Positions 7,381 through 11,685 of a DNA stretch of 64,000 bases are shown piece after piece. The notes beneath the pieces are model-generated. The model did not search any database. It was not told the DNA's origin and saw only the letters and a list, made by a program, of their open reading frames with translations. Numbering within the stretch: the first letter of the stretch is position 1; each line of letters starts with the position of its first letter. Both the position numbers and the translations under genes were made by a program. Origin of the DNA: a virus; the IMG/VR virus record IMGVR_UViG_3300009159_000033; one strand, 5' to 3'.

Positions 7381-7686
7381 ATGGCCGAACTAAACAAACT
7401 GTTAATCCTAGAAGAATCCGTACTGCTAGGTATGATTGGCAATCCTAGCTTCGTGCAAGAGTTTCCTTTCTTGGCAGGTTCCGAGAGTACTATAAAAGCT
7501 AAGTCATCGGGATGTGGGCGATGCAGCCAGAAAGCTGGAAGAAGGATTCAAGCAATCAATGGCATTAAGCAATCGATTGTCTCCATGAGTATTGAGAAGA
7601 AACAGAAGCTTAAACAAATGGTAAACGCAGACAAAGTCCGTGTATTAATCTCCGCTGGCGGTAAGGTTACAGCCTACACTTTTTAG
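7381..7686 (+). CDS. hypothetical protein with CxxC
   Basis: 101 aa ORF, GCGRC, RBS aaggaag. Confidence 0.6.
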   Translation: MAELNKLLILEESVLLGMIGNPSFVQEFPFLAGSESTIKAKSSGCGRCSQKAGRRIQAINGIKQSIVSMSIEKKQKLKQMVNADKVRVLISAGGKVTAYTF

Positions 7687-7697
7687 CCTAAATAATA

Positions 7698-7724
7698 GGC
7701 AATTCGGTGTCATTATTATATGAG
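7698..7724 (+). promoter_or_regulatory. putative phage promoter, copy 1 of GGCAATTCGGTGTCATTATTATATGAG
   Basis: 27 bp identical to 9117..9143; both intergenic, preceded by TAAATAA, with a TATTAT -10-like hexamer. Confidence 0.55.
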
Positions 7725-7814
7725 AGCGATTAGCTCTTGAACCCTTTCTTTACTTGCTAGTGCTAGCAAGAGTTAGGAGTTCTGTTTCTAGGTATCTAGT
7801 AGGGAGACTTTGCA

Positions 7815-8480
7815 GTGAATATTATACAATCTAAGTTGACGGCCTACATCAATCCAACGTCGGACGGTGAGGGACGAGAGTACTCAGTTCCTGTAAAGGG
7901 GACTAGATATTCGACAGGTTGCACAAACCTCCGTGACATTCGTCACGGAAAAGACCAGCTAGACAAGGCTGCGGCCTTGTTTTGTGGGAACAACTTCTGG
8001 GCCACCCGAGTGGCACAGTTGATGGGGCAAGGGTGTCCGGTGTCTCACATCCAAAAAATGGCTGCGGAGGGTCGTGCCGCTTACGAGGCGGATCAAAAGA
8101 GGGCCGAAGAAAGGTCAGACCTTAAACGAAACATCTTTGAAAAGTATGGCGGCTGGAAAAAGTCGTACTTGGCTAACACGGCCAAGTGGCGTGAGATGAT
8201 CGAGGAATTTAGGGAAAACCATTTCTTGGAAGAGGCCGAAAAGCAAGAGCTCTGCCTAGCTCGTGAACTGTCGGATTGCTACGGCCCAGAGGGAGAAAGA
8301 CCCTCAAAGTTTCGGTTGGTAGACGTAAATCCGTATTACTACAACTGTGGGCATTACCCCACGTTTGTAGTGAGGGCCGTTGAAAGCGGCGGATTTGAAA
8401 CATACGAAGAGGCAGAAGCTGCTGCTTCAGTGGCTAATGAAAAAAGCCACAGAAGCTGGATACAGTTTCTGAATGGCTAA
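7815..8480 (+). CDS. hypothetical protein
   Basis: 221 aa ORF, GTG start after RBS agggag. Confidence 0.65.
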   Translation: MNIIQSKLTAYINPTSDGEGREYSVPVKGTRYSTGCTNLRDIRHGKDQLDKAAALFCGNNFWATRVAQLMGQGCPVSHIQKMAAEGRAAYEADQKRAEERSDLKRNIFEKYGGWKKSYLANTAKWREMIEEFRENHFLEEAEKQELCLARELSDCYGPEGERPSKFRLVDVNPYYYNCGHYPTFVVRAVESGGFETYEEAEAAASVANEKSHRSWIQFLNG

Positions 8481-8587
8481 ACCCCGTCCTGAGCCGACGT
8501 TAAAGGGCTCATTGTTATTATTACCCGCCCTCGCTTACCAACTAATGGTAAGTGAGGGTTTTCTTTTTTTAACTATTGGAGAATAAC

Positions 8588-8890
8588 GTGACTAAAGTAG
8601 CACTGGGTTACCATACCCTATACGGGCAAGGGAGCTATCAAAAAGATATTTTTACTCTCCTCTTTGATGATGGCAGCATTAGTGAAGTGCGGGAGGAGCC
8701 TAATGGCATACCTTGTGTATGCCATTATTTGTTTCTTGACCAGCTGGGGGTGGGGGCACGAGACTTGGTAGCGGGAAGCCGCGCCATAATTGTTGGTGAA
8801 GACCGGTGGGAAAAAGAACAAGTTGAGGCACTAAACAAACTTGAAAAAGTTTGGAAAGCTCAACGCAGATTTACAGCTACCCCAGCCTAA
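8588..8890 (+). CDS. hypothetical protein
   Basis: ORF 8576..8890; GTG at 8588 follows RBS ggag. Confidence 0.55.
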   Translation: MTKVALGYHTLYGQGSYQKDIFTLLFDDGSISEVREEPNGIPCVCHYLFLDQLGVGARDLVAGSRAIIVGEDRWEKEQVEALNKLEKVWKAQRRFTATPA

Positions 8891-8912
8891 GCCGACATCA
8901 AAGGAGGTATTA

Positions 8913-9062
8913 ATGGAAAATGTGATAGTTCAAAAATCCTTGTTTTCCGTCATCCGGCGGACAAGGTATCACTTCACAAAAGAACCAAGGTGGGAGACTC
9001 TTATCCCAGCCTTAGTTCTTTTAGTTTCAATCTTAGTTGCTTGTGCCTATTACAAGGCATAA
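8913..9062 (+). CDS. small membrane protein (C-terminal TM helix ending CAYYKA)
   Basis: ATG 8913 after aaggagg; LIPALVLLVSILVACAYYKA. Confidence 0.65.
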   Translation: MENVIVQKSLFSVIRRTRYHFTKEPRWETLIPALVLLVSILVACAYYKA

Positions 9063-9116
9063 GCAGCTAGTCCTAAGCAGGACATTAAAAGGCTTGCAGC
9101 CCTCAGCTAAATAAAT

Positions 9117-9143
9117 GGCAATTCGGTGTCATTATTATATGAG
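9117..9143 (+). promoter_or_regulatory. putative phage promoter, copy 2
   Basis: Identical to 7698..7724. Confidence 0.55.
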
Positions 9144-9220
9144 GGCAACCTTAACTATTGACCCTCGTTTACCCGCTACTGGTAAACGAGGGTTTTCTTT
9201 TAACCAAGTAGCATGGAGGA

Positions 9221-9424
9221 TTGACCATTAACGATCTACAAGTTTTTCATAGGTTAGCCGAGGGAAAGCTCACTGCTATGGAGATGTCAGCTATTCACGA
9301 CATACTCAAAAATTATGAGCCACCGGAAAGATCTTTTGCAGCTAAAGCAAAGGACATAGCAAGTGATTTACTCATATTGGCAATATCAGTATGTGCAGTC
9401 ACTTGCGCATACTACTACAAGTAA
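9221..9424 (+). CDS. small membrane protein (C-terminal TM helix ending CAYYYK), related to 8913..9062
   Basis: TTG start after ggagga; LLILAISVCAVTCAYYYK. Confidence 0.65.
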   Translation: MTINDLQVFHRLAEGKLTAMEMSAIHDILKNYEPPERSFAAKAKDIASDLLILAISVCAVTCAYYYK

Positions 9425-9539
9425 ACCATGTCCTAAGCAAGACATTAAAAGGCTTAATGATATTGTTACCCTCGTTTGCCAGCTACAGCAAGCGAGGGTT
9501 TTTTATTCGTAGTAGGTAATCGAGTAAGGAGATATCAAC

Positions 9540-9722
9540 ATGGACGATTATGAGTCGCCCGATGATGATCAGGATCACCAAGAATTTATCGCAGGGTTGG
9601 ATATCAACAACCCTGCGATAACAGAAGTTAGCAGGTGCAATTCCTGCAAAGAGGTATGGACTGGGACATACCTCGTGGAAGGCGAGTTTTATCCTCGTGC
9701 TAATTGCTGCGGGATGAACTAA
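9540..9722 (+). CDS. small Cys-containing hypothetical protein
   Basis: RBS aaggag; acidic N-terminus, CNSC...CC. Confidence 0.6.
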   Translation: MDDYESPDDDQDHQEFIAGLDINNPAITEVSRCNSCKEVWTGTYLVEGEFYPRANCCGMN

Positions 9723-10025
9723 TCTCATGTCCTAAGCAAGACGTTAAAAGGCTTTTAAAGGTAGGGGAAAGAGTTCACTTCAAGTTATCGGCCTGCCTAC
9801 TTGGCTTGATAATGATGAGGTACTGCCAACCGGCGAAGTGAACTAGTACTAATGGCTGCAAAGTTAGATATGGTAACCCACCAGAGGCAAATGGGAAGTA
9901 GATGAAAATTCTAATCGCCCTCGGCAAGGCGTTAAAAGGTCAGTCTTCATTGTAACCCCCTCACTTGAGCTACAGCAAGTGAGGGTTTTTTATTTGTAGC
10001 AAGTATCGAGCAGGGAGATATCGAG

Positions 10026-10124
10026 ATGGAATTGTTTATTTGGGTAGTTGGTTTGGTTGTGTTCGTAGTGGTTTCAGTTTACTCGGTGGACATGGCCTTA
10101 AGTGGCCTAGGTTCCCATAAGTAA
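10026..10124 (+). CDS. 32 aa membrane peptide (not in ORF track)
   Basis: RBS agggag; MELFIWVVGLVVFVVVSVYSVDMALSGLGSHK translated by hand. Confidence 0.55.
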   Translation: MELFIWVVGLVVFVVVSVYSVDMALSGLGSHK

Positions 10125-10191
10125 TTTTTTCAACCCTCGCTTGCTCGCTACAGCAGGTGAGGGTTTTTATTTGTAGCAGGGAGACTCTATC

Positions 10192-10389
10192 ATGAGTCCT
10201 TATACTTGTCCGTTCTATGGAGAGTTGTCGGAGGAGGAGGCGGAACTTTTACGAGTACCTCACGGTACTCCGGTTAAGCTAGTCAAAGAAATGCGTAAGG
10301 TTAGACGCATAATGCGTCTGGTGCTGCGAGCAGCCTCGGCTGCAATCGTGATGGTAGCGGTGGCAATTGTGGTGGTGGTATTAATTTAA
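10192..10389 (+). CDS. small membrane protein
   Basis: RBS agggag; C-terminal AASAAIVMVAVAIVVVVLI. Confidence 0.6.
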   Translation: MSPYTCPFYGELSEEEAELLRVPHGTPVKLVKEMRKVRRIMRLVLRAASAAIVMVAVAIVVVVLI

Positions 10390-10401
10390 CTTTTCAACCC
10401 C

Positions 10402-10767
10402 TTGTGTGAGGCACAAGCGCAAGGGGGTATTCTAGTGCCATGGAGATTAGCGATGACTCTGACTATGCAGTTTCAAAAGAGCGTTCAGCCGGAGGCGGGG
10501 GTTTATGACGATTCCCAAGGCACCAAGGCAAGACTCTATGCCTTGGCCCAGAAGGCCAAGCGGCTCAAAGGTAGAGGTAAACGATTGCCAAAAGGGTTTC
10601 AGTTGGATGCGTTCGACCCCGAAAAAGTCGGTCTAGATCAGGAAACCTCGGACTTTTACAGTCCCGAGCAGCTGGTAGAACTGTTCGCTCATCCACGGAA
10701 AACCGTGGATTGGGATCAACTAGACGAGCTAAATTCGATTGGTTACTTTTATACAGGAGATGAGTAA
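10402..10767 (+). CDS. hypothetical protein
   Basis: 121 aa ORF whose stop overlaps the csrA start; true start may be downstream. Confidence 0.55.
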   Translation: MCEAQAQGGILVPWRLAMTLTMQFQKSVQPEAGVYDDSQGTKARLYALAQKAKRLKGRGKRLPKGFQLDAFDPEKVGLDQETSDFYSPEQLVELFAHPRKTVDWDQLDELNSIGYFYTGDE

Positions 10768-10955
10768 TGCTAGTTCTAACCAGAAAGCCAGGTGAGATAA
10801 TTGTTCTCGACCTTGATGGTCGAGAGATTAGTGTGCACATCTTGCACACTAGTACAGGCAGAGTTTCCCTTGGGGTTGATGCCCCAAGGGAAGTAAAAGT
10901 GCGGAGAGGTGAACTCTCCGCAAACCCCGCCAAGATGGCGGGGATAGTTGGGTAA
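10767..10955 (+). CDS. csrA: carbon storage regulator CsrA/RsmA family RNA-binding protein
   Basis: MLVLTRKPGEIIVL...V.LGVDAPREVKVRRGEL matches the CsrA consensus. Confidence 0.9.
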   Translation: MLVLTRKPGEIIVLDLDGREISVHILHTSTGRVSLGVDAPREVKVRRGELSANPAKMAGIVG

Positions 10956-11092
10956 TCCCAATGGTCGCAGTATGCGATTTGTTATTGTTGCTTTATTGCA
11001 ATAATAATGAATCTCATACTGCGGCCGTTACCTTCCTATTGCTACAACGCAATGGGAAGGTTTTTTTCTTAGCTATTGGACAAGGAGATGAT

Positions 11093-11290
11093 ATGGAAGC
11101 AGAAAGAGATAACATGTCGGATGTGTACCAAAGCTTTATGCTACAGGTACAGTCCACGCTGGAAGCCAACCTAGCCCCAAAGGCTAAGCTAGATATCATT
11201 GCAGAAGTCGTGGAAGACTTCCAAAAGTTCCGCAAGGCATGTAGGCATGTCAAGCGGGTACTACGAAAACAAAAACCCCTAGATAAGTAA
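11093..11290 (+). CDS. hypothetical protein
   Basis: ATG 11093 after aaggag, within ORF 10961..11290. Confidence 0.55.
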   Translation: MEAERDNMSDVYQSFMLQVQSTLEANLAPKAKLDIIAEVVEDFQKFRKACRHVKRVLRKQKPLDK

Positions 11291-11355
11291 TTTAGCTTTC
11301 TTATTAAGGGGTCGTGTAATAAACTAACCTTAGTTCAAAATGAAAGGAACTAAAC

Positions 11356-11685
11356 ATGGCCGTAAAAGCATTGGTAGTAGAATTGTTAGGAGATGGTAGT
11401 CGAGGCGTAGTTACGATTGAAAGTGACTTGCCTGACTTCGTCATGCAGATTGAAGAGCTTCAGTCTGCCAAAGCAAGGGACTTTGTCTTGCAAGCAACGG
11501 TGAAAGCGGGCATCAAGGGTCTGCCTGGCATTAGCCGGACAGTAGATAGCCCTTATCCTGTAACGGCAGAGGGTGAACCACTGGAAACGCTGAAAGACGA
11601 TAAGGGTGTACCAATTCCTTTGACAGACCCAAGAGCGGTGCCTAAGAGCTACAGAGCTAAGTACGAGGTCACCGCTCGCCAATGA
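11356..11685 (+). CDS. hypothetical protein
   Basis: RBS aaagga; 109 aa. Confidence 0.65.
   Translation: MAVKALVVELLGDGSRGVVTIESDLPDFVMQIEELQSAKARDFVLQATVKAGIKGLPGISRTVDSPYPVTAEGEPLETLKDDKGVPIPLTDPRAVPKSYRAKYEVTARQ

Follow-up and report, generated by a model that had tools for sequence, protein, structure and literature searches.

Introduction

Pseudoknots of the H type in 5' leaders control the initiation of translation in T4 gene 32, rpsO (S15) and the alpha operon (S4). Two other described systems concern us here. In the case of the repZ pseudoknot of IncI-alpha plasmids, translation is reported to need the pairing of a hairpin loop with bases just upstream of the ribosome site (Asano and Mizobuchi 1998, as summarised in PMC8383071). 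For T4-type phages, two reports describe the PeSLs, composite promoter/terminator units which end in the Shine-Dalgarno (SD) sequence and start codon of the next ORFan (PMC2839356, PMC4122927). The present analysis deals with a 64,000-nt stretch of viral DNA (IMG/VR record IMGVR_UViG_3300009159_000033), called the window below, and with a repeated element in it, motif B: a terminator-like hairpin with a U tract, placed ahead of a ribosome-binding site (RBS), whose loop is in several copies complementary to a short box of the leader downstream.

Pairing between hairpin loops and leaders

The pattern CCCTC...GAGGG followed by a T run has exactly five matches in the window, all on the + strand, at 8528, 9162, 9469, 9958 and 10134 (hairpins 1 to 5), for 0.02 expected by chance; the five hairpins which the initial annotation had placed with their U tracts ahead of an RBS are thus present. 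Their stems, of 10-14 pairs with 6-7 G-C, and their loops of 5-8 nt have the dimensions of intrinsic terminators. In all five the U tract lies directly 3' of the stem (at least 5 T in the next 8 nt), and an SD and a start codon follow 15-40 nt downstream. On the upstream side, the hairpin starts in some copies 8-12 nt after the preceding stop codon (8 nt for hairpin 5). Folds of leader segments of about 80-90 nt have energies of -22 to -32 kcal/mol, weak extra pairs included. These features point to a paralogous family of the intrinsic-terminator type, which would be expected to terminate transcription.

We compared each loop with the 45 nt 3' of its stem, using as controls shuffles of this 45-nt stretch and 83 terminators having the same stem ends, taken from unrelated viral contigs (relatives of this phage removed). 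The signal is clear in three of the five copies. In hairpin 2 (class B, 9160-9219, stem 9162-9173 with 9181-9192), GCTACT at 9175-9180 matches AGTAGC at 9207-9212 by six Watson-Crick pairs (-8.3 kcal/mol, shuffle p 0.01), just ahead of the SD GGAGG at 9215-9219. Hairpin 4 (class C, long form, 9958-10017) also displays six Watson-Crick pairs, between GCTACA at 9969-9974 and TGTAGC at 9995-10000 (-9.0 kcal/mol, p 0.01); its box is followed by a variable spacer, by AGCAGGGAG, by the SD at 10014-10017 and by the ATG at 10026 of a 32-aa membrane peptide. In hairpin 5 (class C, short form, 10132-10183) the same letters, GCTACA at 10147-10152 and TGTAGC at 10172-10177, form 5-6 Watson-Crick pairs (-6.4 kcal/mol, p 0.03), and the box adjoins the SD GGAG at 10180-10183 (ATG at 10192).

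Hairpin 3 (class C', 9468-9531) is marginal: its loop GCTACA at 9482-9487 and its box CGTAGT at 9508-9513 make four Watson-Crick pairs, one G-U and one A.C (-6.0 kcal/mol, p 0.17), ahead of an SD GGAG (9528-9531) and an ATG (9540). By comparison, hairpin 1 (class A, loop ACTAA, 8527-8571 with its U tract, then the AACTATTGG box, the SD GGAG at 8578-8581 and a GTG at 8588) stays at chance level; its loop/leader duplex reaches only -0.9 kcal/mol, with no significant pairing (p 0.72). The pairing proposed there, CTAAT at 8542-8546 with ATTGG at 8575-8579, needs a base of the stem and is broken by a T to C change (ATCGG) in the lineage of the related contig L107. The complementary strings quoted in the initial annotation all exist at the loops and leaders concerned; its claim that loop and leader pair in all five copies stands for hairpins 2, 4 and 5, is marginal for hairpin 3 and is lost for hairpin 1. 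Among the unrelated CCCTC...GAGGG terminators, 0/83 fall below -6.0 kcal/mol; one contig that first appeared as an outlier among them, L088, proved to be a relative of this phage.

Where pairing is found, the helix has 5-7 bp, the complement is preceded in the loop by 1-2 nt and the linker measures 7-14 nt, dimensions that fit an H-type pseudoknot. This geometry is limited to the GCUAC class and to a second class, H, described below. In the GCUAC subfamily the box starts 8-14 nt past the stem, either beside the SD or 12-14 nt from it; the distance is 1-2 nt for hairpins 2 and 5, for hairpin H and for the relatives L131, L135 and L150. As stand-alone motifs, the box sequences TTGTAGCA and AACTATTGGA are not enriched elsewhere in the window. 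GCTACA is common in the window, with 33 copies on the + strand, probably for coding reasons.

The same architecture with other sequences

A hairpin without U tract at 10398-10445 on the + strand (hairpin H; stem 10398-10407 with 10417-10426, loop GAGGCACAA) displays the same arrangement with other letters. Its GGCAC at 10410-10414 pairs with a box GTGCC at 10435-10439, 2 nt ahead of the SD GGAG at 10442-10445 (ATG at 10453), at -9.9 kcal/mol. The initial annotation had listed 10396-10428 as a degenerate relative of the five; we find there not a degenerate terminator, but a separate hairpin with its own loop/box pair. Its other proposed degenerate relative, 7740-7781, has just 7 bp around a loop of 4 nt, its fold does not stand out (z +0.67), and it was not retained. 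Hairpin H is kept in 16 relatives. Its positional orthologue in L131 carries GGTAC/GTACC (-8.6 kcal/mol), so that the middle pair is compensatory with respect to the window, and the genes downstream of the two hairpins are 48% identical.

More distant lineages also show such pairs. The L135 lineage, whose marker protein is 68% identical, has in the syntenic region seven copies of a different terminator; five of the seven combine a loop GTGAAT(G) with one or two CATTCAC boxes, the last box being 1-2 nt ahead of the SD. In the L150 lineage (72%) a terminator loop GGTAT(C) faces a box (G)ATACC beside AAGGAG, and in L159 (66% identity for the AAA-ATPase marker) a hairpin without U tract has GGTACC both as loop and as SD-adjacent box. 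For H, L131, L135, L150 and L159 the complement occupies the 3' side of the loop, preceded there by 1-2 spacer bases, and the linker measures about 9 nt, enough to span a stem of 10-13 bp; a classical H-type pseudoknot has such proportions.

Specificity of the fit between loops and leaders

The specificity of the pairing was assessed, in a way less dependent on the choice of examples, on all + strand hairpins of the window and of one locus per lineage that have a loop of 5-12 nt and are located 6-30 nt ahead of an SD with its start codon. Hairpins were grouped by family, a median member standing for each, and the loops were then permuted over the leaders. The fit was better between a loop and its cognate leader (permutation p 0.001 on the mean energy of 29 intergenic families), and looser rules, giving 53 families, led to a permutation p of 0.0003. 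An energy of -8 or lower was reached by two cognate families, GCUAC and H, versus 0/812 non-cognate pairs. The signal is confined to a handful of families and is not general to the terminators of these phages. As far as sequence comparison can tell, loop-leader pairing next to the RBS is real, non-random and recurrent.

Variation within the GCTAC family

We collected 31 distinct copies of the family (29 C-type and 2 B-type) from 16 relative contigs. The stem is paired in 100% of the cells, with two stem pairs changing on both sides, and the stem-box linker is variable both in its letters and in its length (8 to 14 nt). By contrast, the loop core CTAC and the box core GTAG are invariant in the 31 copies. 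Around this core, the G-C pair undergoes three single changes, all C to T and giving G-U, and the A-U pair at the helix end reads U-A in class B, A.C in hairpin 3 and C.U in one L129 copy (loop GCTACC). The initial annotation had read the t/a versus a/t switch as covariation; this switch concerns a single terminal pair beside an invariant core, and is weak as covariation. For the second helix as a whole, the tally is one compensatory pair between B and C, one between the window H and the L131 H, whole replacement of both partners between lineages, and several uncompensated changes. Conservation of the pairing in homologues holds for the GCTAC core and not for hairpin 1, with its broken pairing in the L107 lineage.

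In most relatives the slot of class B is occupied by another cassette, with a hairpin loop AATTTY and a leader lacking GTAGC. This replacement is a swap of the whole cassette and not two separate changes.

Genomic setting and cassette exchange

Small + strand genes of 32-104 codons follow one another over 8.4-11.1 kb of the window; several encode membrane peptides, and structured intergenic units lie in between. A near-identity search of GenBank phages with the window gave no match, and tblastn of the AAA ATPase returned distant matches only. Related contigs from lake metagenomes reach 157-194 kb, and one relative, 94% identical for a marker protein, has a gene for a bacterial-type RNA polymerase beta-like protein (PF00562, E 6e-53). 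This fits, as source, an uncultured lake phage of roughly 175-195 kb with its own multisubunit RNA polymerase.

Among relatives with 92-100% identity in the flanking genes (94-100% for most), homologous hairpins persist with other genes between them, as seen on comparing the window, L068/L107, L105, L110, L112, L115, L117 and L126. The number of hairpins also varies: the segment 9958-10131, i.e. a 32-codon gene and one hairpin, is absent from L068. The hairpins mark the joints of gene-cassette exchange; they separate small early genes and probably insulate them. With a covariance model built on the family, no further copy came up, weak matches aside, on the + strand of the 64 kb window or in five relative records. 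A match on the - strand at 47441-47500 was rejected as an unrelated terminator; its strong terminator-like hairpin, at 47466-47500, lies in the gap between the open reading frames (ORFs) 46968-47462 and 47585-49084, in a direction opposed to all neighbouring genes.

A scan with the sigma-70 consensus gave no promoter at the hairpins, and promoter-like sites were fewer than in shuffles. Another motif, with core GTGTCATTATT and readable as an extended -10 (TGT CATTAT), occurs at 7688-7728 and 9105-9145 of the window, the latter about 20 nt upstream of hairpin 2. It is also found in L131 (6999-7040), L150 (5509-5565 and 5598-5654), L135 (4652-4700) and L139 (2361-2400), is conserved down to lineages only 58% identical in the marker protein, and precedes only some of the hairpin copies. 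This motif may be a promoter of the phage's own RNA polymerase.

Other repeated features accompany the small genes. Motif A, a short hairpin with RTTAAAAGG just after stop codons, is present at 8485-8510, 9066-9092, 9426-9452, 9726-9750 and 9918-9942. L135 has an analogue of it, GTCC..GGAC with GTTAAAC, so that the whole layout of the cassettes is conserved while the sequences are replaced. A box TT(T)AGCTATTG(G) directly follows terminators in every lineage, whatever the hairpin or loop upstream (window 11066-11079; L131 7460-7475 and 9700-9715; L135 ~9975-9990; L139 ~9925-9940; L159 5235-5250), and TAACTATTGG after hairpin 1 is a variant of it; it bears just a loose likeness to the epsilon enhancer of T7 gene 10. 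One of these terminators, E (11030-11079, + strand; stem CCTTCC.../...GGAAGG, loop TACAAC, then the widely conserved box TTAGCTATTGG), served as a comparator without loop/leader pairing.

The gene csrA is at 10767-10955, 600 bp downstream of the hairpins. A long imperfect hairpin at 10961-11029 lies directly after it, ahead of the 11030 terminator; it is kept in L131 and L128, and its Rfam matches are chance-level microRNAs only. Between a 60-codon gene and hairpin 4, about 230 nt (9723-9955) have no convincing ORF and no Rfam match; the L068 counterpart is about 300 nt of another, hairpin-rich sequence. The segment may be a non-coding RNA. More generally, Rfam cmscan gave no match in the window at the gathering score, int-alpA RF02996 included, and for 7400-11400 with E up to 1 only chance-level matches to microRNAs, long non-coding RNAs and small nucleolar RNAs; a tRNA scan gave nothing relevant. 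In L139 (2361-8277), the most distant lineage examined closely, stretches that can be read by eye as tRNA genes replace most of the small-gene cassettes, and in L119 an Endonuclease_7-family gene, possibly a mobile nuclease, is inserted in the cassette region (454-1068, - strand).

Discussion

We estimate at about 0.5 the probability that motif B is a leader pseudoknot acting in cis and built on a terminator stem, with a predicted function in the expression of the next gene. In the GCUAC-loop subfamily (hairpins 2, 4 and 5, more weakly hairpin 3) the 3' part of the loop would form a second helix of 5-7 bp with the conserved box, giving a classical H-type pseudoknot that ends 1-2 nt before the SD and uses the U tract as a long connecting loop; hairpin H would form an equivalent knot without U tract. 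Folding would take place on RNA carrying both hairpin and leader, either read through from upstream or started at the promoter-like motif just upstream, and the knot would then set the use of the adjacent RBS. The direction we favour is presentation of this site, that is activation, as in the plasmid repZ pseudoknot; the knot could perhaps also shield the U-rich linker from nucleases. That the pseudoknot would act in the leader, with a first stem which is often a terminator, is suggested by three features: the box is made after the U tract, two examples have no U tract, and the SD is the constant landmark.

Several observations weigh against this proposal. The second helices are short, and those rich in A/U, at -5 to -6 kcal/mol, would become marginal after a pseudoknot penalty. 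No double change occurs in helix 2 within the GCTACA subfamily, and the B/C switch is weak evidence because it amounts to one helix-end event, with a chance of at least 0.25 given the probable common ancestry of B and C. Some changes are not compensated, namely the A.C of hairpin 3, the GCTACC loop of L129 and two L135 copies whose loop CATAAAT leads to two A.C mismatches. Classes A (hairpin 1), D (loop AATTTY, found in relatives at the orthologous slot), E (11030), F and G have no significant pairing, and the lineages L139, L160 and L161 offer nothing similar. Where L135 leaders have two boxes, the first is 4 nt from a stem of 13-14 bp and cannot pair in cis. The L159 pair is uncertain since a nested fold competes with it. 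Finally a test of downstream versus upstream flanks, coarser (19 U-tract terminator families with one representative each, partly atypical), was not significant.

Part of these points would be expected if the hairpins were plain terminators or insulators in a recombination-prone, PeSL-like intergenic cassette. The complementarity would then have no function in RNA; it would be passed on with a repeat unit propagated through duplication and the exchange of cassettes, and might stem from partial duplications of the 3' arm. The change of gene content between hairpins among relatives with near-identical flanks (e.g. L068) goes in this direction, like the mosaic nature of the stems, the resemblance of the ribosome-site block AGCAGGGAGG plus T run to a 3' arm plus U tract, and the short form, which looks like a deletion between two TAGCA repeats; the lack of double changes in the C subfamily and the terminator classes devoid of pairing are accounted for as well. 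On the other hand, plain terminators leave unexplained why hairpin H, L131, L135 and L150 share the arrangement with unrelated loops and boxes, why cognate loops fit better than non-cognate ones, and why an invariant loop core stands beside variable stems and linkers. We regard this explanation as possible, and on the whole rather unlikely.

The cis pseudoknot could also be part of a larger scheme, in which the terminator hairpin of gene n also provides stem 1 of a knot, and this knot, on read-through RNA, either licenses or blocks the translation of gene n+1. The short addresses GCUAC, GGCAC, GUGAAU and GGUAU would be freely re-written between lineages, and terminated 3' ends might titrate the same boxes in trans, leading to a self-timed shut-off of early cassettes. 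In this complete form the scheme seems to us unlikely.

Quite unlikely too is an action purely in trans, where terminated upstream RNAs (hairpin and U tail) would pair with the boxes of leaders of the same class, damping early translation as these ends accumulate. As one loop and one box are common to all copies of a class, any terminated RNA could indeed address any leader of that class, and the first box of the two-box L135 leaders, sterically unable to pair in cis, would find a use. A hairpin followed by a U tail is moreover the usual Hfq-binding 3' module. However, hairpin H and the L159 example have no U tract and are hence not at a 3' end, on read-through RNA the cis partner about 9 nt away would win, and by inspection the loops do not contain the YUNR U-turn motif.

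The initial annotation favoured a riboregulator through which translation would be coupled to termination or read-through, and which the phage CsrA or an antiterminator would possibly target. The proximity of csrA, the attenuator-like layout of hairpin 2 and of the D-type orthologues, about 20 nt after the promoter-like motif, and the conservation of the loop core, as for a loop recognised by a protein, would agree with it. At the opposite, the box is unlikely to weigh on termination, since it is placed 3' of the U tract and transcribed after the polymerase has decided, and hairpin H and L159 do without a U tract; the coupling to termination is not upheld. Neither is CsrA targeting: the loops ACTAA, CGCTACT, CAGCTACA, AGCTACAG, CGCTAC and GAGGCACAA all lack GGA, and the leaders have a single GGA, that of the SD. 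No antiterminator helix is evident upstream of the hairpins by inspection (no systematic search was made), and folds show the terminator only. We consider this riboregulator very unlikely.

An action at the DNA level, with loop and box as inverted half-sites for a dimeric regulator or as recombinase or nuclease signals moving the cassettes, can draw on the inverted repeats flanking the 3' arm, on the evident exchange of cassettes and on the mini-circle crossover which, in one report on PeSLs, maps inside the stem-loop's loop (PMC2839356), but it is highly improbable, as the centre-to-centre spacing varies from 25 to 27 nt and up to 32 nt, half-sites differing in one genome (GCTACA, GGCAC) would need several proteins, GCTACA is common across the window, and the constant feature is the position relative to the SD, an RNA-level landmark.

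Other readings of the box and its surroundings were rejected. As a promoter -10 (TAGCAT-like), the box would start transcription 6-8 nt downstream and so remove the conserved SD. Most class C copies could accommodate a start-stop mini-ORF, TTG TAG or GTG TAG behind the GAGGG arm; hairpin 3, class B and hairpin H could not, and the stem would sequester the SD of this mini-ORF. The 5' arm could act as an anti-SD by pairing with AGCAGGGAGG (10 pairs and a bulge), but far more weakly than in the local hairpin, and we take this as a by-product. Variants do not preserve a small hairpin seen within TATTTGTAGCAAGTA.

If the terminator-based cis pseudoknot is functional, a unit of 50-60 nt would combine a transcription stop for the upstream gene, the setting of translation for the next one and the homology used for cassette exchange. 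This would explain how large phages swap tiny orphan genes without wrecking expression, and would provide a compact, re-addressable control element for synthetic operons.

Comparison with known systems

The int-alpA RNA motif (RF02996) has no cmscan match in the window or in 7400-11400. The element shares with T4 gene 32, rpsO and the alpha operon an H-type pseudoknot in a 5' leader, here predicted. These three are by contrast single-copy, bound by the product of their own gene, not built on a terminator and not repeated between unrelated small genes.

The rep mRNAs of IncI-alpha and IncB plasmids (repZ and repA) are similar in that a hairpin loop pairs with a short segment just upstream of the RBS. 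The plasmid stem 1 differs in not being a terminator, and the system is single-copy, dependent on translation of a leader peptide and countered by an antisense RNA (PMC8383071); none of these traits was seen for the window element.

PeSLs resemble our hairpins in another way. According to the available parts of the two reports, they are also repeated composite intergenic units of about 60-100 bp which contain a terminator stem-loop and extend to the SD and start of the small ORFan that follows; they cluster within a plastic early region, at joints of gene insertion, deletion and replacement between close relatives. As described there they carry a strong sigma-70-like early promoter, whereas no sigma-70-type promoter overlaps the window hairpins, and those same parts do not describe loop/leader pairing for PeSLs (PMC2839356, PMC4122927). 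The window phage, besides, is not known as T4-like and has, to judge from its relative, its own RNA polymerase. In the literature searched, we met no description of a terminator-pseudoknot with loop and box letters re-written between lineages; its two components, SD-side pseudoknots and shuffling terminator cassettes, are each known.

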